Assembly (NCBI RefSeq): GCF_009834535.1 | Contig: NC_045696.1 | Span: 5,768,001-5,832,000 of the forward strand | Reading direction: 5' to 3' | Length of the DNA: 64,000 nucleotides | Origin: Camelus ferus | Lineage: Eukaryota | Part shown: one piece after another, positions 19,102-45,040 of the stretch | Layout: each line of letters opens with the position of its first letter | Numbering within the stretch: position 1 is the first letter of the stretch | Made by a program: the position numbers and the translations under genes | Notes under the pieces: generated by a model | What the model was told of the DNA's origin: nothing | What the model saw: only the letters and a program-made list of their open reading frames with translations | Databases searched by the model: none

Positions 19102-19143
19102 GATGATAGTGATCTTCCTAAAACATCTTCTGGAAGAAGGAGA
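19102..19143 (+). CDS. BRWD1: BRWD1 42-nt exon (DDSDLPKTSSGRRR)
   Basis: ctag acceptor, aga|gtaagt donor; phase 0-0. Confidence 0.93.
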
Positions 19144-20089
19144 GTAAGTTAATCTGTGTGACTAACCTTTGTTGGTTGTTTATTCTGTGTTTTAAAATCA
19201 ATGTAAGATTTTACATGTTGACTTTGGAAAGTTACGTTGATATTGATATTGAATGTTTTATAAAAGAAATGGGAGAAATCACTGAAAGGTGGATGTCTAG
19301 GTAAGGTTTAATGGAAGAGTTGAGATTTGAATAATGTCCTCAGAATGAAACAGAGTAAGAAGACATTCAAAACATAGGTGTTATTATGATCTAAGCCAGA
19401 AAAGTAGGGAATTGTGGCCCACTGATTGGTGTAGGGTTTGAGTTTCAGAGTAAGCAAAGTAGTTTTGTGTCTGACTTTTATGTTGGGAGCAGATTATGGT
19501 AATATTGAAAACCAAGGATTTCATTTAAATTTATACTAGAGAGTCAGTTCTGTAGCCAAAATAGATAAATAGGTTTTGAGGGATAAGAGGATGGATATTG
19601 AATGTATTAATGTTAGGAGTTCACGGTAAGAATCTAGGAGTAAAAGATGGAAGTAGTGTTTCCATAGTGGGAATAGTGTTTGCTTGGAATGGAGAGGAAG
19701 GGAGGAAGATGAGACCTTTTAATGGGAAAATTAATGAGGATTTGGTGACTGAACCTTTTTAAAAACTGATTTGTTGGGGGTTGGGGTTAAGGAGAATGAA
19801 GTGAAGAATAAATTTTGAGTATTGAGTAGTTAGAATTGTGTCACCAGCAGCTCTTGAAGTTCTAATGTGATCTATTAATTAAAAAATAAAGGTTATTAAT
19901 TTGACAGTGCTTAAAATGTTCTTATTTTAAATTTCATCAAATGCTGCTTAAATTTAAGCTTTTAATCACAGCAGTTTTCATATTATGCTGCCTCAAATAA
20001 CATTGAAAAGTTAGACTTGAATTGTCTTGTGATTGTCATTTTCACATAATTTCATTTTTAAACAGACTTAAGTATTTAGTATCTGTTTA

Positions 20090-20529
20090 GTATTTGTTTG
20101 CTATGATTGCTGTATCAAATTATAAATCCTAGTGGCTTAAGCAATAAAAATATTATCTTGTAGTTCTGTAGATTAGAAGTTTGACCTGGGTCTCACTGGG
20201 CTAGAATCAAGGTGTCAGCATAGCTGTGTTCCTTTCTGGAAACTCTAGGGTAGAATTTGTTTCCTTGCATTTTCCCACTTCTGGAACCTCATGGCCCCAG
20301 TCTTCATCTCCAGGTCAGTAGCACAGCATCTTCCAGTCTGACTCTGACCCTTCTGCCTCCCTCACATAAGGACCCTTGTGATTCCATTGGGCCCACCCTG
20401 ATACTCCGAACTGTGTCCCCATCTCAAAATCCACTCCTTTAGTCTTACCTGCAGAGTCTCTTTTGCCATAGTCACAGGTTCTTGGACTAAGATGTAGACA
20501 TATTCGGGGCCATTATTCTGCCTACCGCA
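20090..20529 (-). mobile_element. MaLR solo LTR (MLT1B/C-like)
   Basis: tagtggcttaa...aatcaaggtgtcagca...ataaggacccttgtgattccattgggcccacc...ggccattattctgcctacc. Confidence 0.8.
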
Positions 20530-20807
20530 TTATCCAGTGTGATACTTCATGTTCTGTGAAAACATTTTCTAAGCTTCGGAGATAAGTGGTGGAATGAAAA
20601 TGTTTTTAGAGTAACAGATATGACATTACTGGGTTTTTACAAAAAAGTGAATTTTCCCCCAAGCAGATAAAAATTCACATAATGACATATTTTGACATAA
20701 TGTGGAAGACAACAGCTCAGTTGCATTTTTATCACCATACTAAACCATACCATAGTGTGATTGTTCCAAGACTGAAAAAACTTTTAATATTGTGCATGTA
20801 TTTTTAG

Positions 20808-21023
<216 letters not shown>

Positions 21024-21532
21024 TAAATTAAAGAGTAAGATTTCCAGGCTTCATGTTAGCTCTGTGTCCTACCGCTAAATCAGCCATGAAAGGGTTGTTT
21101 TACACAGTTGTCTTGAATTTGTAGACCTCCTTGTAACTTGGATTAAGATTTAACATTAGTAACCAATGTTACATAATAACTGGAGGATTATCTGCATGAT
21201 TACCTACTGTCTAAGTAGACCCAGCCCCAGGAAAACTATACACTGAATAAAAGTGTCTGTCTTCAGTTTCCAATGGGGAAATGGAAAATGACCTTTTGAA
21301 AAAAGAGTCAGATTATAAACCACAAATTTACTGTAGGAAGCTTAGAAATTATAGAAGAGTATAAAGAAGGAAACAAAAACTGTTCCATATCCTGCTACCA
21401 AGTATATAATTTTAGTATATTTCTTATCTTGCCTATATATTTGGGCCTCTTTTAAAAAATTATTGATAATTCTTAAGATCCCCTAAAAACAAGAATTGAA
21501 TCTTTGAACTTACTGTTGTTTTTAAAACCTAG

Positions 21533-21685
21533 GATTACCGAGATATTATAGATACTCCAATGGATTTTGGAACAGTAAGGGAAACTTTAGAAGCTGGAAA
21601 TTATGACAGTCCTTTGGAATTTTGCAAAGACATCCGGTTGATATTTAGCAACGCGAAAGCATATACACCAAACAAAAGATCAAAG
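21533..21685 (+). CDS. BRWD1: BRWD1 exon ([15 protein letters not shown]...[11 protein letters not shown]), bromodomain 2
   Basis: ctag acceptor, aag|gtaatt donor; 153 nt. Confidence 0.97.
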
Positions 21686-22689
21686 GTAATTTTAAAAGTG
21701 GTTTTTTTTTTTTCAAAAAGTATGTGTAATCTGTGTAGATGATAATTTTCTATTGATTGGTAGTGGTTGGAATATTAAAGATAAGTGAGTAGAGTGAGAC
21801 CAGTAGTAAGAATAGAGCTTTTCCACTGCCCAGGTGTCTGTTACTGTTTCCTTATAACTGCGTTTGTCTTTCTGAAGTTTTACGAACGGAAGAGAATTGG
21901 TGGGAGTGAGGACACCGGTGAAGAATGAGCAGATTTGTATTTGATGTGTAGAATGAGAAAAACCTGGTTTCTTACATATGGGAGTCCTGAAAAAGTGGAT
22001 TGGTAACTTTTTGATAGAGACTGGAAGAATATTAAAAGTGGAGGTGGGACAACTGATGGTGTACTAATATTTTGGATCTGAAGCAGAAACACATGAGTGA
22101 TCTGATTACTTAAGAATACAAGTAGAGAGGACATTCATAAATTTTTATTACAATGTTTTATGTTGGATAATTTTTCAAAACTTGTTGAAACATAATAAAT
22201 ACACAAAAGTGTGCACATACTCTCAGTGAATATTCACAAACCTTTTTAGCCAGTGTGCTGGGTAATTTAACAAAACAATAATTTGAGAGTAAGATTTTAA
22301 AATAAAGCACTTGTTTGATTATAGCACATTCTCTGTCATCAGTGATTATCACCGCTGATTAACCATTTTTTCTTAATTTCACTTTTCCCTCATTACTTAT
22401 TGTCAGACTCCTGCATTGTTAATACTTCTCTTAACCTGAGAACCTTTCATTGCATTCAATATCCAAATTGCTTACTGGATCACCTTAACATTCAAATCTA
22501 ATGTTTTTCCAAGCTTGTGTTATTGTCAGTGTTCACCATTTGTGAGACTTTGTTTCGAGAGAAAATAAATTTCATTCATGTCTTTTTTCCGTTTTGTTTA
22601 AGTAAAATACATGTTTGAGGATACATCATATAACTCTCCCATTTAAGAGTACAATTTAATGGATTTTGGTGTAGTACCAGTTTTTTCAA

Positions 22690-25600
22690 AATTGTTACAA
22701 ATATAAAACAAAATTTAACCATTTTAACCATCTTTAAGTATACAGTTCAGTGGCATTAATTGCATTCACAATGTTGTTTGACCATAACTGCTATGGATTT
22801 CCAAAAGTCTTTTTTATCACCCCAAACAGAAACTCTGTAACTAGTAAGCAATAATTCCACATTCTCCCCTTCCCTCGGCCCTTGGTAACATCTAATTTAC
22901 TTACTTTTTCTGTGAATTTACCTATTCTAGATATTTCGCAGAAGTTGAATCATACGATATTTGTCATTTGTGTCTGGCTTATTTCACTTAGCATAATGTC
23001 CTAAAGGTTCATGCCTGTTATTGTATGTACAGAACTTTATTCCTTTTTATGGCTGAATAATATTCCACTGTATAGGTATATGACATTTTGTTCCTTCATT
23101 TGTTGATGGACACTTAAATTGTTGTCTACTTTCTGGCTGTTGTGATTAGTGCTGCAGTGAATACGGGAATACAAGTATCTGTAAGAATTTTTGCCCTCAG
23201 TTTTCTTAGGTATGTATCTAAGAGTGGAATTTCTGGTTCTTAGGGTAGTTCTATGTTTAACATCTTCAGGGACCACTAAATTGTATTCCATAATGACCAC
23301 CAGTTTACATTCCCACCAGCAATGTGTGAGGATTCCAGTTTCTCCACATCCTTGACCAAGTTTGTTACTTTCTGTGTTCTTTCAAAAAGTTGTAGCCATT
23401 GTAGTGAATGTGAAGTATTAATCTCATTGTGGTTTTGATTTGCATTTAAGTTATGACTTATTGAAAATTGTGCCTGGAATTTATTTTAATCAGGTATGGT
23501 AAGACATGCAGATGGGAATTGTCATGAAGAAGTTTATATTCACAGATTCCTAGAAACAGAAGTATGATTCAACATTTGGGCCATATGGTGATGGAACAAG
23601 GCAAAGGGGAGTAGTAGGCAAAGGGGAGGAGGGGAAGAGCTTGGCTCAGAGCCTATATTGGGGTGTTTGCAGGAAGGCAAGGCAGGGCTGAGTAAACAGT
23701 CTAGGATTGGCTAGTTTGAATGACTGGAGCTTTGGCCTATAGGGGTGGTCTTTAGATGTCTGAATCCTGGCCCTGGGCTGATTTAGGTAGGGTAGGGGGA
23801 ATATTGGCGTGGTTTGTGAGAGCTTGATGAAGAAAGTAGTTAGGGATGTGAGCTCTGGACCGATTGTTTTGTTTATCAGAGGTGATTGTTTTGTATATCA
23901 AAGGTACACTTGCGAAAGAGCCATTTGCTGTCTCTGGGAATTAGCCCTAGGAGGGGCAGTCTCACCAGAATCAAGGCTCCAAATGCCAGAACATCAAGAA
24001 TACAGAAAATAGGGGATGAGGGTATAGCTTAGTTGGCGGAATGCGTGCTGAGCACGTACAAGGTACGTGGTTTGATTCCCAGTACCTCCATTTGGAAAAG
24101 CAAAAAAAAAAAAAAAAAGAAAAGAAAAAAATACAGAAAATAAAATTTAACCAGTACACTAATGATGTTGAGTTTCTTTTTATGTGCTTATTGACCACTT
24201 GTGTGTCTTCTTTGGAGAAATGTCTATTCAAGTGCTTTGCCCAATATTTAATTGGATTTTTTGTCTTTATTTGGTAAGTTGTAGGAATTTTAAAATATAT
24301 TCTCAATATTAAGTCCTTATTATATAAATGTTTTCCAGTTATTTTCTCATTCTATGGATTGTCTTTTTATTGGTTGATAATGTCCTTTGATGCACAAGTT
24401 TTTAATTTTGATGAAACCCAGTTGATCTCGCCCCCATCCCCCTTTGGTTTCTTGTGCTCTTGGTTTCCTGTTTAAGAATGTTGCCACTTAGGGTCACATA
24501 GCCTGTAAGATGCCCAACACTATTATGCAGCAATCTGAAAAATATGTATTAGAAGCTTAAGTGCCATTTGACTCATTAATTCTAATTTTAATAACTATTT
24601 TGTACAGACATAATATTAACTACTTGCACAAAAAATGTATTTTGAGTAATTTATATAGAGGTGAATGTTTAGAAATAAAGTGTTCAAAATAGTTTAAAAA
24701 GGATCCATTGCCAAATCCAGTGTTACAAAGATCTACTTCATATGTTTTTCTAAGAGTTTTATGGTTTAGTTCTTATATTTAAGCTGTTGAGCCATTTTGA
24801 GTTAATCTTTGTATATGGATGGTGAAAGGTGGAGGTCCAGCTCCTTCTTCTTGTGAAAGTCCAGTTTTCCCAGCACCACCTGTTGAGCTGGCCATTGATA
24901 CATGGGTTTATTTCTGAACTCACTTCTGTTCCTTTGGTTTGTACATAAGTGTGTCTGTCTATCTGTATGTCTATTTCTGTCTTTGTGTCAGTACTGTAAT
25001 GTTTTGTGTACTGTAGCTTTCGTAGTAAGTTTTGAAATAAGTAAGTATGAGTCCTACTTTATTCTTTTTCAGGATTGTTTTGGCAGTTCAGGGGGTGCAG
25101 TTCATTATGAATTTGAGAATCGACTTTTTCCATTTCTGTTTAAGAGCAGTTCACTGAATATTTGATAGGGATTACATTGAATGTGTAGATTGCTTTGGCC
25201 AATATTGACATCTTGACAATATTAAGTCTTTCTATCACTTAATACCAGTTTTTCCATTTATTTTAGGTCTAATTTCTCCCAGCAGTGTTTTGTAATTTTC
25301 AGTGAAAGTCTTATACCTCCTTGGTTAAGTTTATTTGCAGATGTGTTATTGTTTTAGATACTACTTGAAATGCAATTGCTTTCTTAATTTCCTATTCTAC
25401 TTGTTCATTGTTGGTGTATAGAAATACAGCCGATTCTTGTATGTGGATCTCATCCCTTGTAATTTTGCTGAATTAATTTGTTAGCCCTAATAGCCTTCTT
25501 GTGGAATCTTTGTTTCTATATATAGGATCCTTTCATCTGCAAATAGAGATGGTTTTACTAATTCCTTTCCAGTTTGAATTATTTTTAATTATTTTCCTGT

Positions 25601-25760
25601 TTAATTGCTCTGGCTAGAATTTAAAGTACAACGTTTAATAGCAGTGGTAAAAGCAGGCTTCCTTGTCTCATTCCTGATCCAAGGGGGAAAGTTTCATTCT
25701 TTACTGTCGTGTACGATGCTAAATGTGGGCTTTCTATACATGCCCTTTTTCACGTTGAGG
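22690..25760 (-). mobile_element. L1MB-like element (3'UTR plus decayed ORF2) interrupted at ~23447-24156 by an LTR that itself contains a SINE
   Basis: ORFs 23037..23300 and 23971..24306 (minus) give L1 ORF2-like peptides; consensus resumes across the insertion. Confidence 0.8.
24012..24129 (+). mobile_element. tRNA-derived SINE (Vic-1-like) with 13-bp TSD aatacagaaaata
   Basis: gagggtatagcttagttgg...ggtttgattcccagtacctcc plus A-tail; TSD at 23999-24011 and 24130-24142. Confidence 0.88.
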
Positions 25761-26055
25761 AGCTGATAATTTTACCACTCATTTATGTTAAATAATGTTT
25801 ATTTTTAGTTCAAATGTATTATTGAATTTTACATAAAAGCTGATGAGAAAACAGATATATGAAAATAGTGATATTCAAGATTATCAGGTTTCAAAGTTAG
25901 TATGATTGAGGGAAAAATTGTTAAAATTGGTAACTTATGTTAGAGTTCAGGTTTGAAGGAAAACAATATATACGCAAAATACTGGAAATAACATTAATCA
26001 TTTCAAGATGAAGAGGGATTACAGACTTCACATATACTCAACTCACGTGTATGTA

Positions 26056-26457
26056 CAGGTTTCCCCCTGTATTTGAAAGTAGAGCATTCCTCTAAAGTCT
26101 TTCGTAAGCTGAAACTGTGTAAGGTAAAGAAATAGGTAACTTTTGGACATACCTTGCTAACGGATGCACAGTATAGGTCAAGGTAGAGCTCAGATGCTCA
26201 CAGACAAGTTCAAAACTGGTGACCCGATGCTGAGATGCTGAGTGTAGTTGCTGGGGGAAGGAGGCTGGAATGCCACTCCTGCTGTTTGGGGTACACACTG
26301 CCTCTGTAATGGCTTGCTACGAACAAATGCAGAATGCTGTTTTCATCTTTTTTTTTTTTTTTCATAAAATTGAAAATCCTCTTTGAATTTCTTACAGTAG
26401 GTCTTTTGTAAAAGTGAAGTGTCATAAAGTGAACTTTCATAAAGTGGTTGATACTTG
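26056..26457. mobile_element. Tigger-type non-autonomous DNA transposon
   Basis: TA on both flanks; imperfect terminal inverted repeats caggtttccccc / ggttgatacttg. Confidence 0.6.
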
Positions 26458-27297
26458 TACATGTATTTGTGTTGTGTATGTATGTTTTTATATATATATA
26501 TGAATATGGGAAATTCATTTGTTTCACATACCTTTTTAAGGGTTCTCTAGTATTCGTCTCTCCACCATCCTCCACCATGCACCAAAGTGATTAATAATTA
26601 GCTTTTGAATATTATATTTTTATACTTATTTTCAGGAATGATTGTGGATGAGTAAAGAGTACTTCTGGTAAATATATAGCTCTACCAAAAAGTTATTTAT
26701 ACTAGCACTTAACATCACATTGCTGTTCTTGTAAAGATTTGATGTTATTGTAGAGGTTATTACAACACAGTCTTACATAATTAAAGTTATAGGGCATAAT
26801 GTATTCTACTGGGTGCAAACTTTTGTTCTAATAATAATTCTTTTTTAGATCTAAGTGGCATCAAAGGCAGTCACATTTCAAGTAGATACTGGTGCAGAAG
26901 TGCTTTTGTTCCCTTGCCCCAAGGAGACACTGCTCTTTTGCTGCCTGAATAGTAATCTTAAAACCAACCAACTTCCTATCTAACTTTAGGAGGAAGCATT
27001 TTGGGGTTTGTACTTGTAAATGTGGGAAAAATCAATCGAGAATCATTGACATACAGACCTAAACACTAGATTCTAGAGGACTGATTGACTTAAAACTACT
27101 TTCTTTTCAGCCGAGAGGTGTATATTTGATACTTCTGTTTGTTGCAGTGTCCTTGAAGGGAAATAGATAAAATAACAGCTATTACCTATAACAGTGATAC
27201 TATAGATTGAAAGTAGCCTCAGTAATTACAATTTTATTTGTAAAAAATATTTAAAAAGATATTTTATAGTTCAAGTTTTGCTTTCATATCCTTGCAG

Positions 27298-27464
27298 ATT
27301 TACAGTATGACATTGAGATTGTCTGCCTTATTTGAAGAAAAAATGAAGAAAATCTCCTCTGATTTTAAAATTGGTCAAAAATTCAATGAAAAACTTCGAA
27401 GAAGCCAGAGGTTCAAGAGACGGCAAAATTGTAACCGTGTCAGTCAGGCTAACAAAAGTATCAG
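27298..27464 (+). CDS. BRWD1: BRWD1 exon ([18 protein letters not shown]...ANKSI), end of bromodomain 2
   Basis: gcag acceptor, ag|gtgaat donor; 167 nt, ends phase 2. Confidence 0.97.
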
Positions 27465-28059
27465 GTGAATTGGTTATTCTAGGCTTTGTATGCAGTTTTT
27501 TTTTAAAAATTTCAGGTTGTGATATTTCTTTGATTTTATTATGATAAAAATTCTTAATCATTTTAGAGTGCAGTATGTTCAGAAAAGAACAGTCATTTCT
27601 TTACATATAGAGCTATTGCATTGATTTGTAATTACGTAAATTTGTAAGCATTTAATGAAAAGCATTGATTTAAAAATCCTATTAAGGATTGTTCAATATA
27701 TTTATCTTTTGCATAAGAAATTTTTTCATGCAGAGAATAAAATGATTACTATGTATGTCTGTTGAGCATTTGTGTAAGGGAAACGTCGACTAGGTATATA
27801 ATACACCCTCTTTATTGAGGATTGGTTGTAAAGAAGAAATATAAAATGCAGGATTTATTCTCTTTATCAGTAATTTAATTTTTATATTCTATCATCTTTG
27901 GACCATGTAGCTTACATTAATATAAAATTTATAGGTATTTTAAAGTGAAAAGTGAGTTATTCAATCCTTAGGCTGTTTCCATGTACATTTCAAATGTGTA
28001 CCGCACCCTTGATGGGTTTCCTCATGATGGTTCTTTGGAGGGCACCATACATCCTAATT

Positions 28060-30440
28060 CAGAACTGTCTACTTCCGGTTAATGCTATTTAATTCCCACA
28101 GATATGAGAATTTTGTTCTAGTTTAGCTCCCTTCCCTTCCATATTTATGATGTTACTGTCATACAGATCACATCTTTTTGTGTTATGTTTTATGCAGTTG
28201 TCTTTTAAGTCAGTTAAGAATAAACAAATTATTTACACTGTTACTTATATTTACCTATGTACTTACCTTTCCCCAGGGTATTTTTTTCTTTTTGTGGATT
28301 TGAGTTACCTCTGGTGTCATTTCTTTCCAACCTGAAGTCCTTTAATATTTCTTGTAAGACACATGTGCTATCAGTGAATTCCCTTTGTCTATCTGGGAAT
28401 GTCTTAATTTCACTTTTATTATGTAAGACCAGTTTTGCTGGATATAGGATTCTTAGTTGGCTGTGTTTTTCTTTTAGCACTTTGAATATGTCATCTTCCT
28501 ACTGCTCACCTCCAGTGTTTCTGATGAGAAGTCAGGCAGCTGTTAATCTTACTGAGGTTCCTTCCCTTGTGCATATGGGGTTCTCTCTTCCTGCTTTTTA
28601 GATTTTCTTTTGTCTTTATCTTGGAACTGACCGTGATGTGTGTAGGTGTGGATTTGTTTGAGTTTATCCTTCTTGAAATTTGTCCAACTTTGTGGATGCG
28701 TAATGTTTTTCATCAAATTTAGGTAGTTTTTAGCCATTATTTCTTCAAATATTTTGTTCTGCTCTTTCCTTCTCCTTTGGGGCTCCCATTACACTTAGTT
28801 GTATGTTTAATAGTCTCCAAAAAGCCTTTGAGGCTTTCTTCATTTTTTTCCTTTATGTTCTTCAGACTGGATAAATTTTATTGACCTGCTCTCAAGTTCA
28901 CTGATTCTTATTCAGCTCAGGTTTGCTGTTGGGCCCATTGTGTGAATATTTGTTTCAGTTATTACACTTTTCAGCTCCAGAATTTCTATTTGATTTTTTT
29001 TTTTACAATTTCTATCTCTATTGGTATTCTCTGTCATCATACTTTCCTTTAATTTTATAAATATGATTTCCTTCAGTTCTTCAAACATTTAAAAAATAGT
29101 TGATTTAAATATCTAAATATCTTTAGTCCAACATCTGGATCCTCTCAAAGATAGTTTCTGTTAACTGCACTTTCTGCTGTATATGGGCAGACTTCCCTGT
29201 TTCTTTGTCTCATAATTTTTTATTGAAAACTGGACCTGTTTAATAACAATGTGGCAGCTCTGAAAATAATATCTCTGTCAGGTTTTGTTGTTGCTATTTG
29301 CTGTTAACGTATTAGAGCAGTTCTGGATTCTGATCCTTCTCCCTCAGTGATGGTGGTTGTTGCTAGCTAGTTTGTTCAGTGAGTTGCCTGGACCAGTTCG
29401 GTAGTTTGTCTTCCCTGCAGTTTTTAGCCACTGAAGTCTCTGCTGGTTAAAAACCTTTTTTTCTTTTTCTTTTTCTTTTTCTTTGGGGTTTCTTTTTCTC
29501 TGTCTTTTCTCTTTTTTTCGATTGGTTGTCTTTCTTGGGGAGTCGTTTTAGTGGATGGTGAGGGGAGGCGATTTTGGGAGTTGGGTTGATTTTTTTTTTT
29601 TTTGTTCTTTGGGTGGGTATGTGCTTGTTTTTTGGGTGCTTTTCGTTTTATTTTTCTTTCTTTTTTTTATGTAATTACTTCCTACGTTACTCATCCTAAT
29701 CCCCTCCCTCTCCTCCCTCCCTCCCTCCCTTCCTTCTTTCCTTCCTTTTATCCCTCATCTTTGATCATGTCTTCCTGGATGTCTTCCCTGGCTCAGCATA
29801 GCACAGTAGTCCCAAATTTGTCCTTAAACACTGTTGGGCTTCCACACTTTTTGGAAGGGGTCTGTGTGCGAACTGGGGCAAACCTCACTTTCTGCTTATA
29901 TTTTACCAGATACGAGAGTCTCAAGGTCAGCCAAGGATGAGTAGATAACTGAGCTCTCTCCAGTCTTCCTTGAATATATGTGGGACTTTCCACATCCCCA
30001 GGAAGATATTGGAGCTTTTCAAAGACTCCTGTGATTGTCTCAGTCCCTAGATTTCTCCTTTAAATTTCTGGCTGAGCTCTTTCTTGCTCCAGCCAGTATT
30101 ACAGCCTGAGGCAGTGATGCTGTTGGCCTTCCTGGATTGCAGCAATTTTTATTGCTCTTAGGCATGCAGCTTTTCTGCAAAGCTCCCAGATCAGGCCAGC
30201 TTCTCAAGGCTGTTATGCCACAGAATTGGGGTGTGTGTGACTGGGAGTATCACCAAGCTAAAATGCCAGAGACTTTACTGTTTTTACTTAGATACAGAAG
30301 TTTTTCTTGAATCAGCATTTTTTTAAGATTTGTTATATGCCTCTGATTACTTTCTAGGGTTCTGAAATGGTTCTTGTGGGATATTTTGCCAGTTTTACTT
30401 TTGCTTTTTGGGTGAGAGAATTTGCTGAAGTTTGAGTACA
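28060..30440 (-). mobile_element. Old L1 5' region: decayed ORF1 plus 5'UTR-like sequence
   Basis: ORF 28241..28480 (LKEKHSQLRILYPAKL...EIKTFPD...LQEILK) is the L1 ORF1p C-terminus; boundaries approximate. Confidence 0.75.
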
Positions 30441-30867
30441 TTCCTGCCCCCAGTGTTTAGGATAGCAGGGCCTCATTGACACAGATAAACATACCTATTA
30501 AGTAAGTGACTTAGTCCTGTTCAGCTGCTTTGCAGCCTGTAGTTCACGTACATACATTACAGAGTTTTGTGGGAGTCCTAATTTCAGAATTATAGAAAAG
30601 TTGATGAATAATTCAGAGAGCTCTGTTACAGTCTACCTGGATTCATCAGTTGCTAACATTATGTTACATTTACTTGATTGTTGCTTTTATCATTCTGCTA
30701 TTTTTCTTTACCTTTTAAAACATTCAGGAGAATATTTCCAATGTCATGCCCCTTTCACTCCTAAGTACTTAGTATGGATTTACTAAGAACAAGGTTCCAA
30801 CTACAACTTGTGTTACTACGTTGACACACCAAAATGGCTATTTTTCCCCCCAATTTAGATCCAGTTT

Positions 30868-31849
30868 TTTGTTTTAACTTTTTTTTATTGAGTTTTAGTC
30901 ATTTTACAATGTTGTGTCAAATTCCAGTGTAGAGCACAATTTTTCAGTTATACATGAACATATTCATTGTTGCATTTTTTTTTTGCTGTGAGCTACCACA
31001 AGATCTTGTATATATTTCCCTGTGCAATACAGTATAACCTTGTTTATCTATTCTGCATATGCCTGTCAGTATCTACAAATTTTGAACTCCCGGTCTGTCT
31101 CTTCCCACCCACTGCCCCCTTGGCGACTACAAGTTTGTATTCTGTGTCTGTGAGTCTGTTTCTGTTTTGTATTTATGTTTTTTTTGTTTTTTGGGTTTTT
31201 TTTTTAGATTCCACATATGAGCGATCTCATATGGTATTTTTCTTTCTTTTTCTGGCTTATTTCACTTAGAATGACATTCTCCAGGGACATCCATGTTGCT
31301 GCAAATGGCGTTATGTTGTCGTTTTTTGTGGCTGAATAGTATTCCATTGTATAAATATACCACATCTTCTTTATCCAGTCATCCGTTGATGGACATTTAG
31401 GCTGTTTCCATGTCTTGGCTATTGCAAATAGTGCTGCTATGAACATTGGGGTGCAGGTGTTATTTTGAAGTAGGGTTCCTTCTGGATATATGCCCAGGAG
31501 TGGGATTCCTGGGTCATATGGTAAGTCTATTCCTAGTCTTTTGAGGAATCTCCATACTGTTTTCCACAGTGGCTGCACCAAACTGCATCCCCACCAGCAG
31601 TGTAGGAGGGTTCCCTTTTCCTCACAGCCTCTCCAGCATTTGTCATTTGTGGATTTTTGAATGATGGCCATTCTGACTGGTGTGAGGTGATACCTCATTG
31701 TAGTTTTGATTTACATTTCTCTGGTAATTAGTGATATTGAGCATTTTTTCATGTGCCTATTGATCATTTGTATTTCTTCCTTGGAGAATTGCTTGTTTTA
31801 AGTCTTTTGCCCATTTTTAGATTGGGTTGCTTGTTTTTTTCTTATGTCA
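30868..31849 (-). mobile_element. Young 5'-truncated L1 with 12-bp TSD tagatccagttt, nested in an older L1MC-type fragment
   Basis: ORF 31204..31698 is an intact ORF2 C-terminal segment; TSD at 30856-30867 and 31850-31861. Confidence 0.93.
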
Positions 31850-33160
31850 TAGATCCAGTTTAAGATCATGCATTGCATTTAGTTTCAATGTCTCTTTAGT
31901 CCTTTTTAATCTAGAGTTTTGAAGCTTTGTCTTCTTGATTGATGTTTTTGAAGAGTATGGGTCATTTATTTTATAAAGTGACTCAATTTGAGTTGTGTGT
32001 TGTTACATGAGTTTTTAAAGTTTTTGCTTAATTATTTTTAAAAAACTCTTTCTTTTTGAACCAACAAAGAATCTTCACAGTTCAGAATGCCATAGGATAA
32101 AAAGGAATTACCACCTTGTCTACTGTTAAAAAATCCAGTTTATGATAAGTATAAGCATGTAGTTATTTCTTTTTGTATTACCCTCAAGTTGATATTAACA
32201 GAAGTTAAAATTTTGACATTACAAGCTTGGATTGTCTTTTTTTGTCTTTTTTAATAAAGGGAGGAAATCAAGATAGAACACTTTGTAGTCGTTTCTGTAC
32301 CCCCTCCCCCCTACCATTTGTAACAGGCAGATTGGATTTAATACATGGAAATTAGAAGACTACTTGTCTTTAAAAATGGTCTTATTATATATGGAAGCTT
32401 GAATTTTCTTGACTGTGATAAATGGTTACTGCTTAAAAGAATTGTCATCTTTTTAAAATTGAAGGGTAGTTGATTAATTGTAGTTATCTTTAAGCTCAGA
32501 TGCCTTAGGTACTCCTAAAAGCTCTTTTATCTTTTTGCTTTAAAGGAAAATAGGATTATCTTAAAAAATATAAATATTACCCAGATCTGTAACTTAAAAC
32601 CAAAGATTTTCTTAAACTTCCACTCTCTTTGACCATAATCCATGGCTCAGGGGCCAAACTTGTGAATTGGGCCTTAGACGTAAACAGATTGGTCTCAGGA
32701 AAAAAATACAGCTTGCTCTGATGTTTTTTTTTGCCTCTCATTCTTTCTGTTCAGGCTTTGTTCATTTCTCCTTCTAATTTTATGCTGTTTTTGTGAGCAT
32801 ATAAATAGGAGCCTAGAGGGAAATGTTGTGTCATATTGAGACTCAAATTTGTAATATGAATGAATGCCTGTATCACATAAATGTTGGCTCCCCTTAGCAT
32901 TTAACCCATAGAACCTAAGGTATTCAGTACGATTTTCTGTAACTCTGTTCCTTGGATCATTTGTTCATTACTCTGATTTGGAATAAAATGATGTAAAATT
33001 GAAAGTAAGAGGATAGTAATCCATGCTAGAAGAAGGTGTGAATGATGAATACTTCCTGTCTCGATCATAAAGCTATTCTCAGATTGAGTCATAACACACT
33101 GTTATTTAGCCATCTCTTTGTTTTATTAAGTACTGTTTTATCTTTCCTTTCTTTGACCAG

Positions 33161-33391
33161 AAATATCAAACAGAAGCGGTTAAAATCTCAGGCAAAGGTA
33201 ACTCCTGAGTTGGTAGGTTCTCCTACTCAGTCTGCCTCAAGTAGGGCGGCTTACTCTGCAAGCCACAAGACAAGTGCTAGTGTCTCTTCGGGTGTTACTT
33301 CTGGGGACTCTTCAGATTCAGCAGGGATCATCAGAAAGAATGAGAAGAAATAGACCTGTCACTCGAATAACAAATGGGTCTTCACTATCTG
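33161..33391 (+). CDS. BRWD1: BRWD1 exon ([10 protein letters not shown]...SGDSSDSA / [22 protein letters not shown]) carrying an apparent +1 frameshift at 33324-33326
   Basis: ccag acceptor, g|gtgaga donor; 231 nt, whereas the flanking phases (2 in, 1 out) require 230 nt; BRWD1-like peptide continues in the shifted frame. Confidence 0.92.
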
Positions 33392-34566
33392 GTGAGAAAT
33401 GGAACGTTATGTGTTCAGCTTTTTGGCACTCAAGTGTGTAACATTATTAGTAACTTTCGGTTTTGAGGAAAGAGTAAATAAGACATTGCCTTGACATTTG
33501 AGGAACTTAAAATTGAACAGAAGATACTTAGGTAACAAATAGGGAAAATTAGATTATGTTTGATAAATACTGTTCTTTGCAAATGGTGCAGCCATTTAAG
33601 CAAATTTGAATTTTAAGCAAATTTGAAGCTTTCAAATTTTAAATAATGTGATATAAATATCATACTTGGGTGCAAAATTTGACAATTTAAAATTTCTTTA
33701 AATAAAAAAAGGACATGGTAATCATATAAGCTTAAAGCTAATGACCTAGTAAATTCTGGAATTTTATTCTAAAATGTAATTCCATTTGTTTTATTGCCAT
33801 TTGATAATATAGCTGATGCTGGCCCTTTGTGTGAATGAGGCCACGGTGTGTACGTATTTCTGTATTGCTCTGAGCTATCTTGGTAACTTGTGATAGTGTA
33901 ATAATTACTGTTGTGATTTAAAATAGGATCAAACAGGTAGAATTGCAGCCACATTTTAGAAATCGGCAAGACTTGCAGAAGAGTTTGGGTTACTTAATAG
34001 GGTCCTTTGTTAGGGAATCACGTGACAAATTCTGTTTCAGGAAGACTGATTAATTTGACAGTGATGCGCAGGGAAGGGGAAGAATCTGGAAAAATAGTCA
34101 ACACCTGGGAAGTAGACTACAGTAGGAGCAGTTTCAGAGGAAGAAGCAGTTTGGTGACCGATAGCCCTCTAACACAGCCACTTTCTTCTTTGAAATACTG
34201 GACTTGAAATGATTGTGTTTTTTTCTGTAGGAAGTACCTATTTCTAAGAGAAGAAAGTAGGTAGCAGGGCTAATTAAAATCTTAATGAAAGCTTGTTTAT
34301 AAAATATATAAATTATATTTTCTGAATCCAAACCAGTATTAATATGTTACTTGCAGACAACAAGAGAACAAACGATTTCAGTTGCTGATTGTGTACTTCT
34401 TAATACTAAAATGTTATCCACTGTTCTTTGAAACAATTAAAACAATATTCTCTTCTTCTAAGTATTTTAAGAGTCTGCTTTTAGTCTGTTGTTCCAAAAC
34501 AACTGCTCATGTGTGTAAAGATAGGAGAATATATGTAATGAGCTATTGATGCTTTATTTTTCTTAG

Positions 34567-34734
34567 AAAGTGAAATGGAAGATTCCTTAGGTACCTCTTC
34601 GTCATCTTCAGCTTCAAATAGTTCAGAGGGAAGCAAAGCGAGTTCAAGAGCTCGTGAATCCTCCTTACGTAGTGGGCTGGCCAGGAGCAATAATCTCAGG
34701 GTGACCAGAACCAGAGCGGCTCAAAGGAAAATGG
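34567..34734 (+). CDS. BRWD1: BRWD1 exon ([14 protein letters not shown]...TRAAQRKM)
   Basis: ttag acceptor, g|gtaaga donor; 168 nt, phase 1-1. Confidence 0.96.
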
Positions 34735-34854
34735 GTAAGAAGAGGCTCAGGGGTACTTCAGAGGAATGTATATCAAGAGAATCCAAAAGCTAAATATTGG
34801 CTGGTTTATTGACTTAATGCATCTACATATGATTACATGTCTTTTAGGCTTTTT

Positions 34855-36409
34855 TTTTTTTTTTTGAGGTGTAATTGACGTAAAACGTTTTATTAATTTT
34901 AAGTGTACAGCATAATGATTTGATATTTGTGTACATTACAAAATGATTACCACAATGTCTTTTTACCATGCATCACCATGAATAGTTACAGAAATTTTTT
35001 CTTTTTTCTTTTTCTTGTGAAGCCTTAAGATTTACTCTTAGCAACTTTCAAATATGCAATACAGTATTATTAACTATACTTGCCATGCTGTACATTATAT
35101 GTCCATGACTTACTTATTTTGTAACTGGAAGTTTGTACCCACTCCCTATCTGCCCTAGCAACCACCAGTCTGTTCTCTGAATCTATGAGCTTGTTTTTTG
35201 TTTTACTTTGTTTTGTTTCTGTAGATTCCACATATAAATGAAATCATGTCGTACTGTTTTTCTCTCTGACTTATTTCACATAGCATAATGCCCTCAAGGT
35301 CCATCCATGTTGTCACAAATGGCAGGATTCCATTTTTTTTTTTTCAAATGGCCGAATAGTATTCCATTGTGTATGTTTGTGCGTGTGTGTGTGTATACAC
35401 ACACACACACGTATATGTATGTATACACACATGAGTATATGTGTGTTTACACATGTTTATATGCCTTTATATACACACATATCACATCTTCTCTATCCAT
35501 CCATCCGTCAGTGGACACTTAAGTTGTTTCTGTATCTTGGCTGTTGTAAATCATGCTACAGTGAACATGGGGATGCGTACATCTTTTCAAATTCATGTTT
35601 TTATTTTCTTTGGATAAAAAACTACAAGTGGAATTATTGGATCATATTATGCTGCTTTTGTTAATTTTTTGAGGAACCTCCAGACTTTTCCATAGTGGCT
35701 ATACCAGTTTACATTCCCACCAGCAGTGCACAAAGGTTCTCTTTTCTTTCAAATCCTCACCAACACTTGTTATTTGTTTTCTTACAATAGCTGTTCTAAC
35801 AGGTGTGAGGTGATAGCTCATAGTGGTTTTGATTTGCATTTCTGTGGTGAGGTTGAGCATCTTTTCATGTTCCTGTTGGCCATCTGTATGTCTTCTTTGG
35901 AAAAATGCCCATTCAGATCCTCTGCCTACTTTTTAATTGGATTTTTCTTCGCTGCTGTTCAGTTGTATGAGTTCTCCATGTATTTTGGATATTAACCACT
36001 TATCAGATACATAATTTGCAGACATCTCCCATTTAGTAAGTTGCCATTTCATTTTATTGATGATTTTCTTTGTTGTGCAGGGGCTTTTTAGTTTGATATA
36101 GTTCCACTTGTTTACTTCTGCTTTTGCAGTCAGATCTAAAAAAAATCATTGCCAAGACTGATGTCAGGGATCTTTCTGCCTATGTTTTCTTCTAGTTTTA
36201 TGGTTTCAGGTTGTAAATTCTTTAATTCAGTTAATTTTTGTGTATGGTGTAAGACAGTGGTCTAGTTTCATTCCTTTGTGTGTGGCTGTCTAGTTTCCCA
36301 GCACCATTTACTGAAAAGACTGTCCTTTCCCCGTTTTATATTCTTGGCTTCTTTGTCATAAATTGATTGACCACATATGTGTGGGTTTATTTCTAGGCTA
36401 TTTCTGTTC
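34855..36409 (-). mobile_element. L1MA-like 3' 1.55 kb with internal (TG/CA/TA) low-complexity expansion and degenerate 17-bp TSD
   Basis: T-tail at 34850; antisense L1 3'UTR and ORF2; tgtcttttaggcttttt (34838-34854) versus tgtcctttagacttttt (36410-36426). Confidence 0.85.
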
Positions 36410-36549
36410 TGTCCTTTAGACTTTTTAAATTTAGAAAGGTAATCTGTTTTGGCATTAAACACTAAGGAACAGCTGCATTAAAATAATAAATCATTTAAAA
36501 TGTTGAAATGAGGAAGATCTTTCTAATCTTACCCTTACTTTATTTCTAG

Positions 36550-37446
36550 GTCCAGTTTCTTTAGAAAATGGATGTGGCAGAAAAGCCACTCGAAAGAGAG
36601 TCTATTTAAGTGACTCTGATAACAATTCTTTGGAGACTGGTGAAAGTCTAAAAGCCAGAGCTGGAAATAATCGGAAAGTGCTACGAAAGTGTGCTGCTGT
36701 GGCTGCCAATAAGATAAAGCTGATGAGTGATGTAGAGGAGAATTCTAGCTCTGAAAGTGTCTGTTCTGGCCGTAAGCTGCCTCACCGCAACGCTTCTGCT
36801 GTAGCTAGAAAAAAGTTATTACATAATTCCGAGGATGATCACAGCTTAAAGTCAGAACTTGAAGAAGAGGAGCTAAAAGATCATAATCAAACATTACCAT
36901 TTTCCAGTTCTCATGCTGCCCAGAATACTGAAAATGGAGATTCAGAGTCAGAAAGCAGTTTGCGGGTAGCTCGGAAAAATTGGCATGCTAATGGTTACAA
37001 GTCCCATACTCCAGCTGCTTCTAAAGCAAAGTTTCTTAAAATAGAGTCTTCTGAGGAAGACTCTAGAAGTGATGATTCCGATAACGGATGTAACAGAGCT
37101 GCTGGCCCATCAGCATCTGGGCAGAAACTTAAGGCAGAAAGCGACTCAGACAAAGAGGAGGAAGCAGATTTTGAACCAAGAAAATATGGTGGTAGGAAGT
37201 ACAACGCAGGCCGCAAAAATGCTACTTTCCTTAAAAAAGCAAAGATCTTCAGCGATTCAGAGGACTCTGAAGAACAAGATGGAGAAGACGGTAGATGTCA
37301 TAAAATGGAAATGAACCTGAGTTCAGGGAATTTGAAGCATGAACCTGTTGCTGGGTCCCAGTGTTTCTCAGATCATGTGTCTGAAACTGACTTGGATTCG
37401 GATGATGACAAACAAACAAAAGAAAAACCAGACAGTCTTATGAAAG
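36550..37446 (+). CDS. BRWD1: BRWD1 large exon ([17 protein letters not shown]...KPDSLMK)
   Basis: ctag acceptor, aaag|gtaatt donor; 897 nt open frame (ORF 36630..37478). Confidence 0.96.
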
Positions 37447-38318
37447 GTAATTCAAAACATTTAACCTCAGTTCACTGATTTATTCTCACTGTCCTCCCTT
37501 CTCTGTAGCATAATACATTGTTTTTCCCCCATGAAACTTTGCCACCTGTTTTCTCTCCACTCATACATCCTCCATTAGTCTTTTCTGTGTGTGCATTTAG
37601 TTTTGCTCATGTAACAAGCAGCCTTGGCCATAGCTTTTTTTTATTAAAGATTTCACTTCTTGTATTGGTATGGAGATACTGTATTGGCTGTGGGTTTAAG
37701 AAAAGCAAAGGTGACACACATTTATAAGCTATGGTGATAACAGTTTGAGAAGAGCAAAGAAAAGATAGGTTGAAAGGAATGTGTTACTGACCTGTTTCTC
37801 TTATCAGGAAGTTTTTCTAAATGCTTTACGTTCATTAACTGGTTTAGTCTTCATATCTTATATGACGTAAGTACTATTTCTATCATTGTCCATTTTACTG
37901 ATAATAACTCTGGAGCACAGTTAACTTGCTGAATTATCCTGGTAAATGGAGACTGAAAAATATTAAAGAGCAGGAGGCCTCTAAAGCTAGGATTAAAAGC
38001 AGCATGTGATGGAACTTGCAAAATTAACAAGGTGCAGGGAGGCTGAGAATGAGTAGTTTGCAGACCTTAGTGCAGTGGTAAGAGAGCTTAGTTGTGTTCG
38101 TGTAAGTAAAGTATTTGCGTGTCAAGTGCTTATGCAGCTAGAAAGGCATGGGATGCTGTTGATGGGCTGTATTGCACTTGCTGAGGCTGAAGAAGTCACT
38201 GTTGTGAAGTATTAAAAGCCCAGCCCATTCACTGCCATCCTCCTTCCAAGTTAGAATCCCAAATTTAAGTTGTATAAAATACTGAACATTTAATTCCTTA
38301 ATATTTGCTAATTTTTAG

Positions 38319-39481
38319 ATTCTACATCACAAGACCATGGACAAAGCAGAAAAGTTTCCAGGAAAAGGGTCTGTTCCAGTGACTCAGACAGCAATTCAAA
38401 GGTGGTTAAGAAATCATCAAAAGCCAAAACGGGTCTCCTAAGAGTTCCTCGAAGATGTGCAACCACCGCCGCTAGTAAGATTAAGCTAATGAGTGATGTG
38501 GAAGATGTCAGTTTAGAAAATGTGTGTACTAGCAGCAAAAATGGAAGGAAGAAGGCCCTCCGTTTTGCATGTACCACAGCTAAGAAGACAGTGAGTGATT
38601 CTGAGGGAGAGGTAAGCTGTGAAGTGCCAAATGAACAGTATGCCTGTGAAGGGAGTCCCCTGGAGGCCAACTCACGAGGTAGCACAAAAAGTATTAGCCA
38701 GTCTTTAAACGGAGACTCAGACTCTGAAGGTATGCTGAGTTCAGGACACAAGAACAAGCATACAGGTAGTCACAAAACAAATGTTGCACCTTCTAAAACA
38801 GAGAATTCCTTGATTGGGTCTTCAGAGGAAGATTCAAAAAGCCATATTCCAGAGGGTGAGGTTGGTAGAAAATGTTCTTCTGAGTCGACTTTGGTGCAGA
38901 AAGCTACTGCAGAGAATAACTTTGAAGAGGAACTGAATTACGGGCTGCGCAGGTGGAATGGCAGAAGACTCAGGACCTATGGGAAGGCTCCTTTCAGTAA
39001 GACAAAAGTGATGCGTGGTTCACAGGAAGCAGCCGAGTCAGAAGTAAAAAGGAAGAGACTACGTCCTGAATTGGAAAATGTGAAAGCTTCTGAAACAACA
39101 GGGAGTTCAAAGTGTGGACCTGACACTGGTCCCAAATCTGATTCAGATTTGGGGTCTGCGACTGAATCAGAGGCTGACTGTACTGATGATACAAAAACCA
39201 AAAAGAGGAAAACGAAAGGAAAAGCAAAAGTAGTTAGAAAAGGTAAAACTTTTACAGCTAACATATCTAAAACTGTGAGACGACAAAGACAAAGCAAACG
39301 TCCTAGGTTAACTGTGGATGATAATGACTGGGAGGATTTGGACTATGCAAAGTCTAAAAGAGTTCTTCGACGTTCAAAGATAAAGACGAGAAATCAGGGT
39401 AGAAGGACCGTGAGATACCATGATGGGGATGATGATAGAGGCTTAGAAAATGTGTTAGATTTTGATGATTGCACCTTATGA
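38319..39481 (+). CDS. BRWD1: BRWD1 composite terminal exon: spliced at the 39242|gtaaaa donor (long isoform) or read through to TGA 39479-39481 (…ENVLDFDDCTL*, isoform-B-type C-terminus)
   Basis: ttag acceptor; continuous ORF 38402..39481; internal donor after GKAKVVRK is phase 1, compatible with the 49307 exon. Confidence 0.95.
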
Positions 39482-42023
39482 CCTTGAGGGAAAACCAGTT
39501 CATTTAAGGAGGGAATGGACTGGAATTTATAGTGAATGCTGGCTGTTGAAATTACTTTTTGTCCTACAATTCAGGGAATATATTTATATTTTTCTATGAA
39601 AAGTTACGAATGTGACTAAATCATGACTGTTATTTTATTTGCACTTGCCTTTGTAGCAGCATTCAGCACAGGTGCCAAAATACGCTTCACTTTGGGGGCA
39701 GATCTACTTTGACAGTATTTAACTACATAGAGCAGGGGTTTGAAGTATGTTAAACACTAGACATCCTGGTTCTCAAAGCCAGTGAGCATTACTTTCATGG
39801 TAGCAAGTGTCATACAGTTATTTTCTGAGTTCGTCAAGAGGTGGTAGTTTCTAATCCCAGCCCTGTTGTAGTGTAAACTCCATGTGACCTATGTTTACAG
39901 AGTCGTCATAAATACTATGTGCATACTGACGTAACAGTCATGGGAGGTGGAACCATGATCAGTAGGCAAGGTACCTACCACTTCTTTTCTTTCCCTGGCT
40001 ACTTGAGTAGAATGCATTATACCAGATTTGGTCATTTTCATTGAAATCGTTTCCAGTTTTCTTTCCAAATCCTGTTGGGTCTTCCTCTTTTTGTTTATTT
40101 TTAAGGAAAATATCCATTTTATTTTATAAACTTGAATTTATAAAGTGCCGGTAAATTATTTTTTTTAATGTTTTGATTGTATATTTTAAACCTTTAAGGC
40201 CAGACTATAGTGGCAGCATTTTCTTTTAAATTGTGCACTAACAAAATGCTATATAAATGCCTTTCTCAGATCTCCTGGTTTCCATGTACGAGATTTAACC
40301 AAAATCTTGGTCTTCCGTAGTCTCACTCTGTGAAATAGAGGAGTTCGTGTGCCTTAGACTTAGGTGTAAGTGTGTTCTTCAATAGTGTGTACAGGGCTAG
40401 AAGTATTTAAATTACATGTAGTTTCCCCCATCTCTATTGAAATTGTAGAGTTGAGTTTTGTTGAAAGAGTGCAATTGCAAATCTCTTTTATATAGGAAAA
40501 TAGTTTAATTCATTCTCCGTCTCTTTTAGTTTACTGCTGCCATGTGCAATCCCAGGCATTCTTTGCTGGTGCAACTAAGTATCTTTATTAGTGACCTCTA
40601 ATTTAAATCTAAGAAATTGTTCTGTATTGTGGGAAAATAATTTTCGAATCCATTTAAAGCAGAACTTTGACCACATCATCAGATACCATCGTACACTTAT
40701 TTTTGAGCCAAATATTTTTACTTGATAGGTTGTGCTACTCCAGACAGTGTAGGTGGCCATTCCTAGCTTGTTTGTGCCTGAAGATGGACTTGATTCAAGT
40801 GGTTTACGTATTTTGTAGCTGAGGGGTATGTTACAGTACCCCTATCCTTTGTTATTTATTGGCCCTAACTGTATTTGGGTTCAGACAAAACTAACCCTTT
40901 TCTCCTGTGTATCCTTCAGGTGGCAGATATGGAAAAGCATCAGACTCTGGTATCAGTGTTAGAATGTGCTTAAGTGTTGTTACTTTTTAGTTATCTATTC
41001 CATTTAACAGGGTAGAAAGTCCTTTCTCTTTCTACTCTGGTGTAAGGGGAAGGATGTCCTTAGACGTTACCAGCTGAGATAGGTGGGGTACCCACCTCTC
41101 TTTTGGTTGTTCAGAGAGCTATCACCACTTCAGAACTATGATGCTTTTCTTCTAAAAGCTCGTGTTAACTGTGCTGTTGACAGATTGAGTCAGGGAATTC
41201 ATCCTTGACTGTTGACCTGAAAAAAATAATGGAATGGGCTTTACTTCCCTAATTTTAAGAAATGGTGATAGATGTCATAGCTATTAATTTATTTTAACTC
41301 TTCTTAAGCTTCTGTTTTATATCTATTCTCAGGGTTATAACTCCATGTTTACCATCATCTGCAAAAGGGTACCAAAAAAATCCATAAATAAATAGGGAAT
41401 ATATTCATAAACACATGAGTTCTTTTGTTTGGTGAAATGATACTTTGACAATTTAGGCTTCATCAATAGAACTGTTCTTATCTTTTGGACTGAATTAACT
41501 GAATTGATTGGCTAGTCAACCAATTCCTAATTTTTCATTTTGTCCAAAATGGTTAGACCCTAGTATGTAGAAGCAGTGTTTTGGTTTCATCCGAAAAAAA
41601 ATGAGAATTGGCCTGGTGACTTTGAAAGCATGGTTGACGATGGTAGCTTCTCAAGTTCTGAAGTAAAACTAGGGGATTATAGAGGGAATCATTTTTATGG
41701 GTTTTTTTGGTCATGGTGCTATTCCTAAGGGTTAACTTTGAATATGTGACACACACTCCTAAGTACCTTTAAGGAAAATTAATAAATAATTAATAGTTCA
41801 AAATGTTTACATTGAGCACTAGAACATGTTTGACTTTTTTTTTTTCTATTTCTCCTTATGCGAAATGAGCAGGGATGTAATGCACAGATGTACTTTAATG
41901 TGTTTGGGGTCAGTTGTGTTTTTCTTGTGAAAAAAGACAAAAGGTTACAGGTTAAATGTGAACTGATCCAGAAGTAAGTGCTGTACTTTCCATTGCACTT
42001 GAAGTAATTTAATGGTGTATCTG

Positions 42024-42054
<31 letters not shown>
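42024..42054 (+). repeat. A31 homopolymer in the BRWD1 proximal 3'UTR / last intron
   Basis: Read directly. Confidence 0.95.
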
Positions 42055-42056
<2 letters not shown>

Positions 42057-44599
42057 CTACTGTGGTTGTGTATGTCCAAAGTCCTATGATTTTATTCATT
42101 TATGGTTAAAAGGTTTGAGGTGTATTTAGGTTTGACTTCTGATTCCTTTGAAAGACTAATTTTACCAAGCGTATTAAGACAAAAAGATTTCAAACATTTA
42201 GAAAAGTAAGTGAGATTTTTAAAAGCTCTTTTTTTCCTTCATTTCCTGCTTATTTAAAAAGGGTATACTGACAGTGTATAGTAACTTCTGAATAAAAGGA
42301 AGAGTTTATCCCATTTTCATATAATTCCTAGGGTAATTATTCTCCCTTTTTTATTTTAGGGGAAAATCTGATTAAACCTTTTGTAAATTTAGTACTCCTT
42401 TGAAAGAATGATAAGGCATTTACAGCTTCTAAGTTACAACACAAAAGTTACTTCTAGATAGTTGAAGAGTTGTACCTACAAAAGAAAGTTTTATGGTAAG
42501 AAAAAGAGGCAGGGGGGAAAGAACTTATGTTTTAGGAAGAGGCACTTTAAAACCTAGAAGTGCAAATGGGGAAAGGAGACATAAACCAGTAAAAATGCCA
42601 TCTGAAGGTACTACTGTCCAAAAATAAGAGTAAGACACATAACCAAATCCTTCACACCCCATTGGTTGATGACCTCTTAAATAAAAATTCTTAACTTAGA
42701 ATAACGTTGGGCCTATACTACATTCCCTGTCCCTCTTCTAGCCTTTTTTCCTTTAGAATAATCAGAACACAGAATTTATTAACTTCACTGTATGATATTA
42801 AAAACTAAAATGAAAGGATTTTGTTAATCCCTTCTGTCAGTACAAATTGAGTTTGATTGTGTCACCTGAAAAAATTGAGAGGTTTCAAGAACATTGCTAA
42901 AGGTACATACAATATTTTTGGTTTTCCTTTCTACTCAGTTGTTTTGACTTTTCAAGTAGTATTTAAATGGCTAGAAAAGGTCTTTTTGCCTTGCCTTTTT
43001 TTATAGCTGAAATGCCATCTCATTCTTTTCATTGATACTAAGTTAATATATTTATCAGTTATCTTGTAGTTGTCACCAGCTCCTTTAGTTGGTACATTAT
43101 ATGGAAATTGTAGTTCAGTTTTTTTAGTATGGTGACAAGCACCTTCATTATAGAAGAGCTTTCCATCTGTTCATTATTTAGTTACATCTCTCATTCTGTT
43201 GTGGGTATCAGGGAACAGTAAAGCAGAAACCCTAAGAAATTTGCAACTAACAATAAGACGATCTCTTAACCTCTAGTATTTCGGAACATGCAGAGCAAAC
43301 CGAATAAATTTGTCAAAGGTAGGGAAAAATGAAACATAGAAAAACCCGGTCCAACTAGATTAGTAAATGCTCATCCTACTTGTAGCACAAATTGTGCATT
43401 TAATGGAAAGGATTGAACTGTAAACGGTGTTGGTGAGGGCTGTGTATTCTTTTCTCACATTTTAAGAGAAGTTTTTACAGCTATTTTTTAAGGTTACAGA
43501 TGCTGCCTGAGGATGCATGGGAATTCTCAAAAGTTTAGAGAAATTTCTACCAATCGTAATCTGTCAAGCTGGTTCCAAATATATTGTTAATTTGGTAGAA
43601 AAATATCAAGACTCCTACTTGGTATCTCCTCAAGGATTGCTCTTCCGGGCTGGCAGGAGGGAGGCGGGGCCGGGGCATCCGCAGCATGAGGGCGGGCCCT
43701 GCAGACCCGCAGGCAGTCTCTGGCAGAGTGTGCGTGCTACAGGCTGTCTGCACTGGTAGTGTGATTGAACTTAATTATCAGTACTGCAGCATGTTGTCTG
43801 GTCATGCTTTAGTCTTTACGCTCTTTTAAGGTAAGTTTTATCATTTATTAAAATTTTAATGGGGATTTGGGCTGTAAAGAGAAAGGCATTCTGAGGATTG
43901 AGATGAGACGGCGCAGACTGGACTGCAGCAGCCAGCCCGACCTGCCATTGGTTCCACAAAGGAAAGTATTTAGAAATTACCGCCTTTTTTGATCAGTGGT
44001 TAAATGTTAAAGGAATCTTTAATAAGTTGAAGTTGATTTTCTAAGTGTTGATCCACACTGAGTCCTCGGACTGTTCAGGTACATTCAATTCACCTATAAA
44101 ATTCTAACCGTTTTACTGGAGCTGGTCAGAAAGGCAAGTCTTTAATTTTCCACTCCCTCATGCGAGTTCTGCTTTAACTTACTAAATTCACTCATAACCA
44201 CATCTAAGGCTTAGCATTGTCAACTAGGAACCAGTTCTTTTTGACAACTAACTGAAGTAGTAGAGTATGATAAATTTAATACTGTGATAATTACAAGCAA
44301 ATGTTTTTTTTGTCTTTTTATTTTTTTTTTAAACTACTGCAAGCTTCTAGCTGGTTAATTCTGTGAGGTTTGCAACATCCAATCAGTTTCCCTTGCAATT
44401 CACCTTTCCTTTTTGTCTGAAGCAGCTCCCCAACCTTCATCCACTTGTGATTTCTTATGCAGGCAGAATGCAGCGCAGTTTGTTGTACGAGCCAGGGCAG
44501 GGGAAACTGGAGGGAATCAGATGTGCTTGAAAGGGGCTGCCATTGGACTGTGGCATTGCTGCGTTTCATTCGTAAACTAATAAAGTAGATTGAAAACCC

Positions 44600-45040
44600 A
44601 GTATTTACTTCTGATACCTTCTTATCCTGCCTACGCTGGTCAGAAATGATCTGAGCTATCTCTTTAAAAACTCAAGCGGGGCTGCCTTTCACCTCTCCAG
44701 CACCTTCTTCCTCTGAGCCTCAGAAGCTCACCTGCCATTCATTCTTTTTGATCCTTGTTTGTTCTTTGCGCTGTTGCCTGTCTGTAACTTCTAATTAGTC
44801 CACATTCATTCTTACACCACTTCCTCAGGGCGGCTTTCCCTGACCACCCACACTCCCCAACATTCAAATGTCTTGTTGCAGATTCTCCAGCATTTTTTCT
44901 CTCTCCTTCACAGCACTTGTCACAATTGCAGTTTTTAAATGTTGTCAAAATTGCAGTTTTAAAATGTGTATAATTATCTGATTACTGCATTTTCCTCCAA
45001 TAAACTGATAGCTCTGTGAGAGCAAGGATCATAAAAGAGT
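44600..45040. mobile_element. L2 fragment
   Basis: ttcctcagggcggctttccctgaccacc...cttcacagcacttgtcaca...gctctgtgagagcaagga pattern. Confidence 0.6.

Follow-up and report, generated by a model that had tools for sequence, protein, structure and literature searches.

One coding exon of BRWD1 in the assembled genome of Camelus ferus is, as written, one base too long to be read, which raises the question of whether the sequenced camel carries a truncated gene or whether the assembly carries a wrong letter. We addressed this question in a 64,000-nucleotide stretch of the assembly (the window), beginning from an earlier note that had proposed, from the letters alone, a +1 frameshift, a premature stop and, as the most likely cause, a homopolymer consensus error. 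We found that the observation is real, whereas the feature itself is most probably not a real one.

The frame break and the gene around it

The letters around the break read gat tca gca GGG atc atc aga aag aat gag aag aaa TAG. In frame 1 the exon gives ...SGDSSDSAG and then foreign residues up to the stop, frame 2 carries on from the same point, and tblastn with an orthologous protein (P0005) places the change of frame at 33325/33326. Exact matching of two camel proteins (P0032 and P0126) assigns residues 1458-1512 to 33162-33326 and residues 1513-1533 to 33328-33390, with one base left as surplus. The TAG at 33351-33353 is confirmed by the sequence, and the frameshift by the sequence, by tblastn and by exact protein matching. 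The extra letter could be one of the Gs or the A that precedes them at 33323; both placements give Ala-Gly and a 230-nt exon, and protein data cannot separate them.

Features of the window that bear on the frame break, with their strand and distinguishing details
Feature	Position	Strand	Details
GGG run with the surplus base	33324..33326	+	sequence; one base left over in exact protein matching
Contig position of the break	C1:5801323-5801326		window is C1:5768001-5832000
Premature TAG in the shifted frame	33351..33353	+	ends 38 nt short of the exon end
BRWD1 coding exon with the break	33161..33391	+	231 nt assembled, 230 nt in RNA; residues 1457/1458-1533 of P0126 and P0032
Upstream BRWD1 exon	27298..27464	+	end of bromodomain 2 and linker; closes on two codon bases, atc ag/gtgaat
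Downstream BRWD1 exon	34567..34736	+	opens with the last two codon bases, ttcttag/aa agt gaa atg
BRWD1 part inside the window	2350..49695	+	21 coding exons, residues 828 to the C-terminus
Exon of PSMG1 (PAC1 family)	55510..55728	+	outside the defect; PF16094, E 2.2e-20

The exon is bounded by an acceptor ag/A (preceded by gaccag) and a donor G/gt (gtgaga). Because the exon before it ends on two bases of a codon and it must itself end on one, its length must be 3n+2, which 230 fits and 231 (3n) does not; the phase arithmetic of the earlier note was right on this point, as the flanking exons (27298-27464 and the one opening at 34567) attest. Skipping of the exon, considered as a rescue, was rejected: 'ag' would then be followed by 'aa agt ga...', still out of frame, just as had been claimed.

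Judged by its domain set and its closest named relatives, the gene is the BRWD1 orthologue, the identity that it had been given before. The matches of the frame-1 peptide are BRWD1 proteins, and a search seeded with a bat orthologue gave 129 matches, of which, among the 120 listed, nearly all are named BRWD1 and a few are unnamed or hypothetical; in both protein searches every family-named match among those listed is BRWD1, and PHIP and BRWD3 are not the closest relatives. When proteins were ranked against the exons of the window, three from Camelus came first, with peccary, rhinoceros and carnivores far behind. Pfam found in P0126 the N-terminal BRWD1_N domain (PF25437, E 4.2e-38), WD40 repeats (PF00400, E 3.8e-48), the BRWD/PHIP ancillary domain (PF25313, E 2.4e-36) and two stretches of bromodomain (PF00439, E 3.5e-40). 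Both bromodomains precede the break, which falls at residue 1512, in agreement with its earlier placement just after the second.

A search of the same genome (G000, 2.09 Gb in 2043 contigs) with a BRWD1 query gave identities of 85-100%, mostly 92-100%, on the contig of the window (C1) and of 74-88% on two other contigs, where matches to the WD40 and bromodomain exons lie at C37:52.19-52.22 Mb and C8:17.69-17.76 Mb. These paralogous matches are presumably BRWD3 and PHIP. A second copy of the exon, or an alternate-haplotype contig carrying it, was sought in this genome and the one match was the exon itself.

Outside this site the gene is encoded without fault. P0126 is matched exactly in 2275 of 2275 residues over C1:5712854-5807478 (the window and 60 kb upstream of it), in 42 colinear segments whose 41 boundaries comprise 40 introns and one gap of a single base, i.e., a length difference of one base with all else intact. 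Residues 828-2326 of P0032, the C. bactrianus isoform X1, are likewise matched exactly in the window in 22 segments, with 33326/33328 as the sole junction that is not an intron. The frame break is no chance feature: apart from it, the gene is residue-perfect over 2275 codons and nowhere else interrupted. In a gene under decay, or in a stretch of generally poor quality, further lesions would be expected, and the single gap thus favours an assembly error. The earlier statement that all other exons of both genes are intact holds for BRWD1 in full, and for the second gene, PSMG1, it extends to the one exon seen by Pfam.

The first 67 codons of BRWD1 are spread over four small exons at C1:5712854-5713460, parted by very short, GC-rich introns of 98, 139 and 169 nt; the gaps between these segments were considered as extra breaks and rejected, being ordinary GT..AG introns. 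The gene has two 3' ends in the window. In one, a large exon is read through to a stop at 39479-81 (P0126, 2275 aa, last coding base 39478), and in the other, 39241 is spliced to a final exon, 49306-49695 (P0032, 2326 aa). A motif of this final exon recurs in the large exons 36552-37445 and 38318-39478, so that the C-terminal third of BRWD1 is internally repeated.

Farther downstream, a GC-rich island at 52500-53600 (GC 0.52 in 52001-54000) is followed by the PAC1-family exon; together they form the beginning of PSMG1, the adjacent gene, which has the same orientation and is, going by the human map, presumably the conserved downstream neighbour of BRWD1. Open frames at 31204-31710 (-), 62820-63455 (-) and 6234-6479 (+) are found within introns of BRWD1 and beyond exon 2 of PSMG1, and presumably correspond to the C-terminal region of LINE-1 ORF2, which they resemble.

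Orthologous proteins and public annotation

By BLAST-based contiguity, all 136 of the BRWD1 proteins retrieved cross the site in one frame. The offset between the segments upstream and downstream of it is 0 in 130, and the remaining 6 show a small difference that keeps the frame; the set takes in P0126 itself and three unnamed ORFs (P0001-P0003). The chimpanzee protein (P0066), for instance, reads ...DSAESSERRRRNRPITNGSTLS across the site. An ORF 100% identical to the frame-1 peptide was not found in the range searched (112-2000 aa), and 34 nt immediately to the left of the site, which the extra base does not alter, had 0 matches among metagenome contigs.

The RefSeq title of P0126 is 'LOW QUALITY PROTEIN: bromodomain and WD repeat-containing protein 1 [Camelus ferus]', and its sequence differs from the protein encoded by the assembled genome by exactly this one base. 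Such a title would be expected if the window belongs to the assembly of that species. As described in two sources (10.1101/2021.07.16.452324; PMC12906968), NCBI applies this label where a frameshift or stop has been corrected in the model; one of the two describes such corrections as typical of assemblies from noisy long reads, and frameshifts from residual indel errors are described as common in long-read-based assemblies (10.1101/2021.07.16.452324). The public annotation, by means of the LOW QUALITY label, seems already to compensate for the break. The P0126 sequence is filed for C. bactrianus too, there without the flag. A comparison with other assemblies, which the earlier note had proposed as a check, agrees with an error in this one: the isoforms of C. 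bactrianus, C. dromedarius and Vicugna pacos, on contigs of 149.7, 122.7 and 124.7 Mb, respectively, are unflagged and intact.

Transcripts and sequencing runs

The RNA-seq run X16 comes from a different animal of the same or a sister species, and five of its contigs were obtained and placed on 32750-34850. One of these (233 nt, depth 153.5) spans 33158-33391 with one letter missing at 33323 and 0 other differences. The letter is absent at depth 153.5 of 153.5, and the assembly's version is found in no contig of this run; contigs drop rare variants, and a minor GGG allele in X16 could go unseen. The place given for the gap, 33323, may be the A itself, or it may be the letter that precedes a gap left-aligned within the G run. 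A second contig (depth 101) joins 33390/33391 to 34566/34567 across a GT..AG intron and matches the predicted splice. Taken together, the two contigs indicate that the mature transcript of that animal has the in-frame 230-nt exon, spliced as predicted. The exon contig is about 17 times as deep as the flanking intron, i.e., the exon is expressed and spliced, and in its intact form. An RNA-seq check at this site had been suggested in the earlier note, and the contig, one letter shorter than the assembly, is what would be expected of an assembly artefact.

Intronic contigs of the same run, at a depth of 8-9, show two substitutions and no indel. The two differences from the assembly (32846 A>G and 32954 G>A, depth 9) are presumably ordinary polymorphisms. 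Over the 1,987 bases compared with X16, 0 of the 141 other runs of at least three identical letters differ, two 7-mers included. Homopolymer errors are therefore not widespread in the assembly here, which counts against a consensus error at this site, as does the site itself: a run going from two letters to three is an unusual place for a homopolymer error, and GG is no classic trap.

An RNA contig one letter short of the assembled DNA would also be seen if the DNA did carry the base and the frame were restored by transcript slippage, by editing or by programmed frameshifting. We consider this extremely improbable. The RNA and the DNA come from different animals, the other camelid models are not flagged as corrected, so that their DNA reads in frame, and BRWD1 is not known to have a slippage, editing or frameshifting mechanism.

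A further line of evidence comes from DNA. Twenty sequencing runs contain the 2-kb stretch around the exon, in whole or in part. The best 14 DNA runs, drawn from five studies with two organism labels and including eight flagged as possible sources of the assembly, each hold 0.98 of 193 sampled 31-mers, and none of them holds 1.00. By computation, one changed site costs 31 of 1971 words, which leaves 0.984, or about three of the sampled words. The uniform ceiling of 0.98 would thus fit a base that is private to the assembly, a reading drawn from word shares, which do not locate the missing words.

These data bear directly on the suggestion that this camel lineage is losing or shortening BRWD1, whether through a truncation fixed in the lineage and specific to it or as a young pseudogene. 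The assembled stop codon is all that speaks for it, and against it stand the remaining 2275 codons, which equal the domestic Bactrian protein, the 40 introns, all intact, the expression and splicing of the exon in intact form in X16, which contradicts loss, and the word share of 0.98, which is common to runs of both organism labels. Pseudogenisation was rejected on the grounds that the rest of the gene is perfect and the RNA contains the intact exon, and we give next to no credence to a lineage-wide loss.

The alternative that has to be weighed most carefully is that the extra base is a real germline allele, heterozygous or homozygous, in which a +1 frameshift truncates BRWD1 after residue 1512 and adds eight foreign residues. 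The assembly itself reads the base, the two substitutions relative to X16 in the same 2 kb are presumably real polymorphism at this locus, no other indel discrepancy was seen even at longer homopolymers, and heterozygous Brwd1 loss is tolerated in the mouse. However, the base is absent from the only independent sample that covers the site (the X16 RNA, with the shorter form only), none of the best 14 DNA runs reaches 1.00 of the words even though eight possible sources are among them, three other camelid assemblies have intact models, and the prior for a truncation in a conserved 2275-codon gene without any other change is low. We therefore regard a real allele as improbable, if far from negligible, and it is similarly unlikely that the base marks a segregating truncating allele of BRWD1, with the sequenced Bactrian-type camel as a natural knockout or a heterozygous carrier.

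For any one conserved gene in a single animal, a truncating allele is a rare event, and residual assembly indels are far commoner. Because of this prior, together with the RNA contig, the intact camelid models, the LOW QUALITY flag, the otherwise perfect gene and the ceiling of 0.98, we favour a consensus error. Sequence from independent animals of the same or a sister species is free of the base, both in the X16 RNA and in the unflagged models of three camelid assemblies. We conclude that the extra base is very probably an indel error of the assembly consensus, and we infer that the sequenced animal's own DNA has the shorter form. The true exon would then be 230 nt long and read in one frame, giving full-length BRWD1 of 2275 or 2326 residues. 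Of the cause first proposed, a homopolymer consensus error, the consensus error has gained support from the RNA, the camelid models and the word ceiling, and the homopolymer part may not hold, since the surplus letter could be the A at 33323.

Consequences and comparison with known systems

The significance of the finding is mainly one of quality control: scans for gene loss, tests of selection and variant annotation would misscore BRWD1 in this assembly as truncated at residue 1512. Were the truncation true, the WD40 and bromodomain part of the protein would be kept and the C-terminal third removed. As an established rule, nonsense-mediated decay (NMD) acts on transcripts whose stop precedes the last exon junction by more than about 50 nt; with several junctions following the stop, this transcript would be expected to undergo it. 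The NMD-type position ascribed to the stop in the earlier note is borne out, the TAG lying upstream of at least three coding exon junctions and more than about 50 nt before the last. BRWD1 is described as essential for both male and female fertility in the mouse (PMC4284233). A true truncation would make the camel a carrier for a fertility gene, which would matter in practice for breeding or conservation, and would introduce no new biological principle.

Three known systems invite comparison. The site resembles other RefSeq/Gnomon models labelled LOW QUALITY PROTEIN in that a single-base indel interrupts an otherwise perfect conserved coding sequence; the label has its limit, however, in that an error and a real allele both fit it. 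With BRWD1 of C. bactrianus, C. dromedarius and Vicugna pacos (P0032, P0033 and P0127), the window has in common the exon structure and both 3' ends, but these models run through ...(I/T)TNGSSLS unbroken, whereas the window needs one base taken out. Finally, the loss-of-function alleles of mouse Brwd1, which leave both sexes infertile, concern the same gene, and the assembled camel sequence, as written, is truncating as well; unlike the mouse alleles, the camel truncation is most likely not real.
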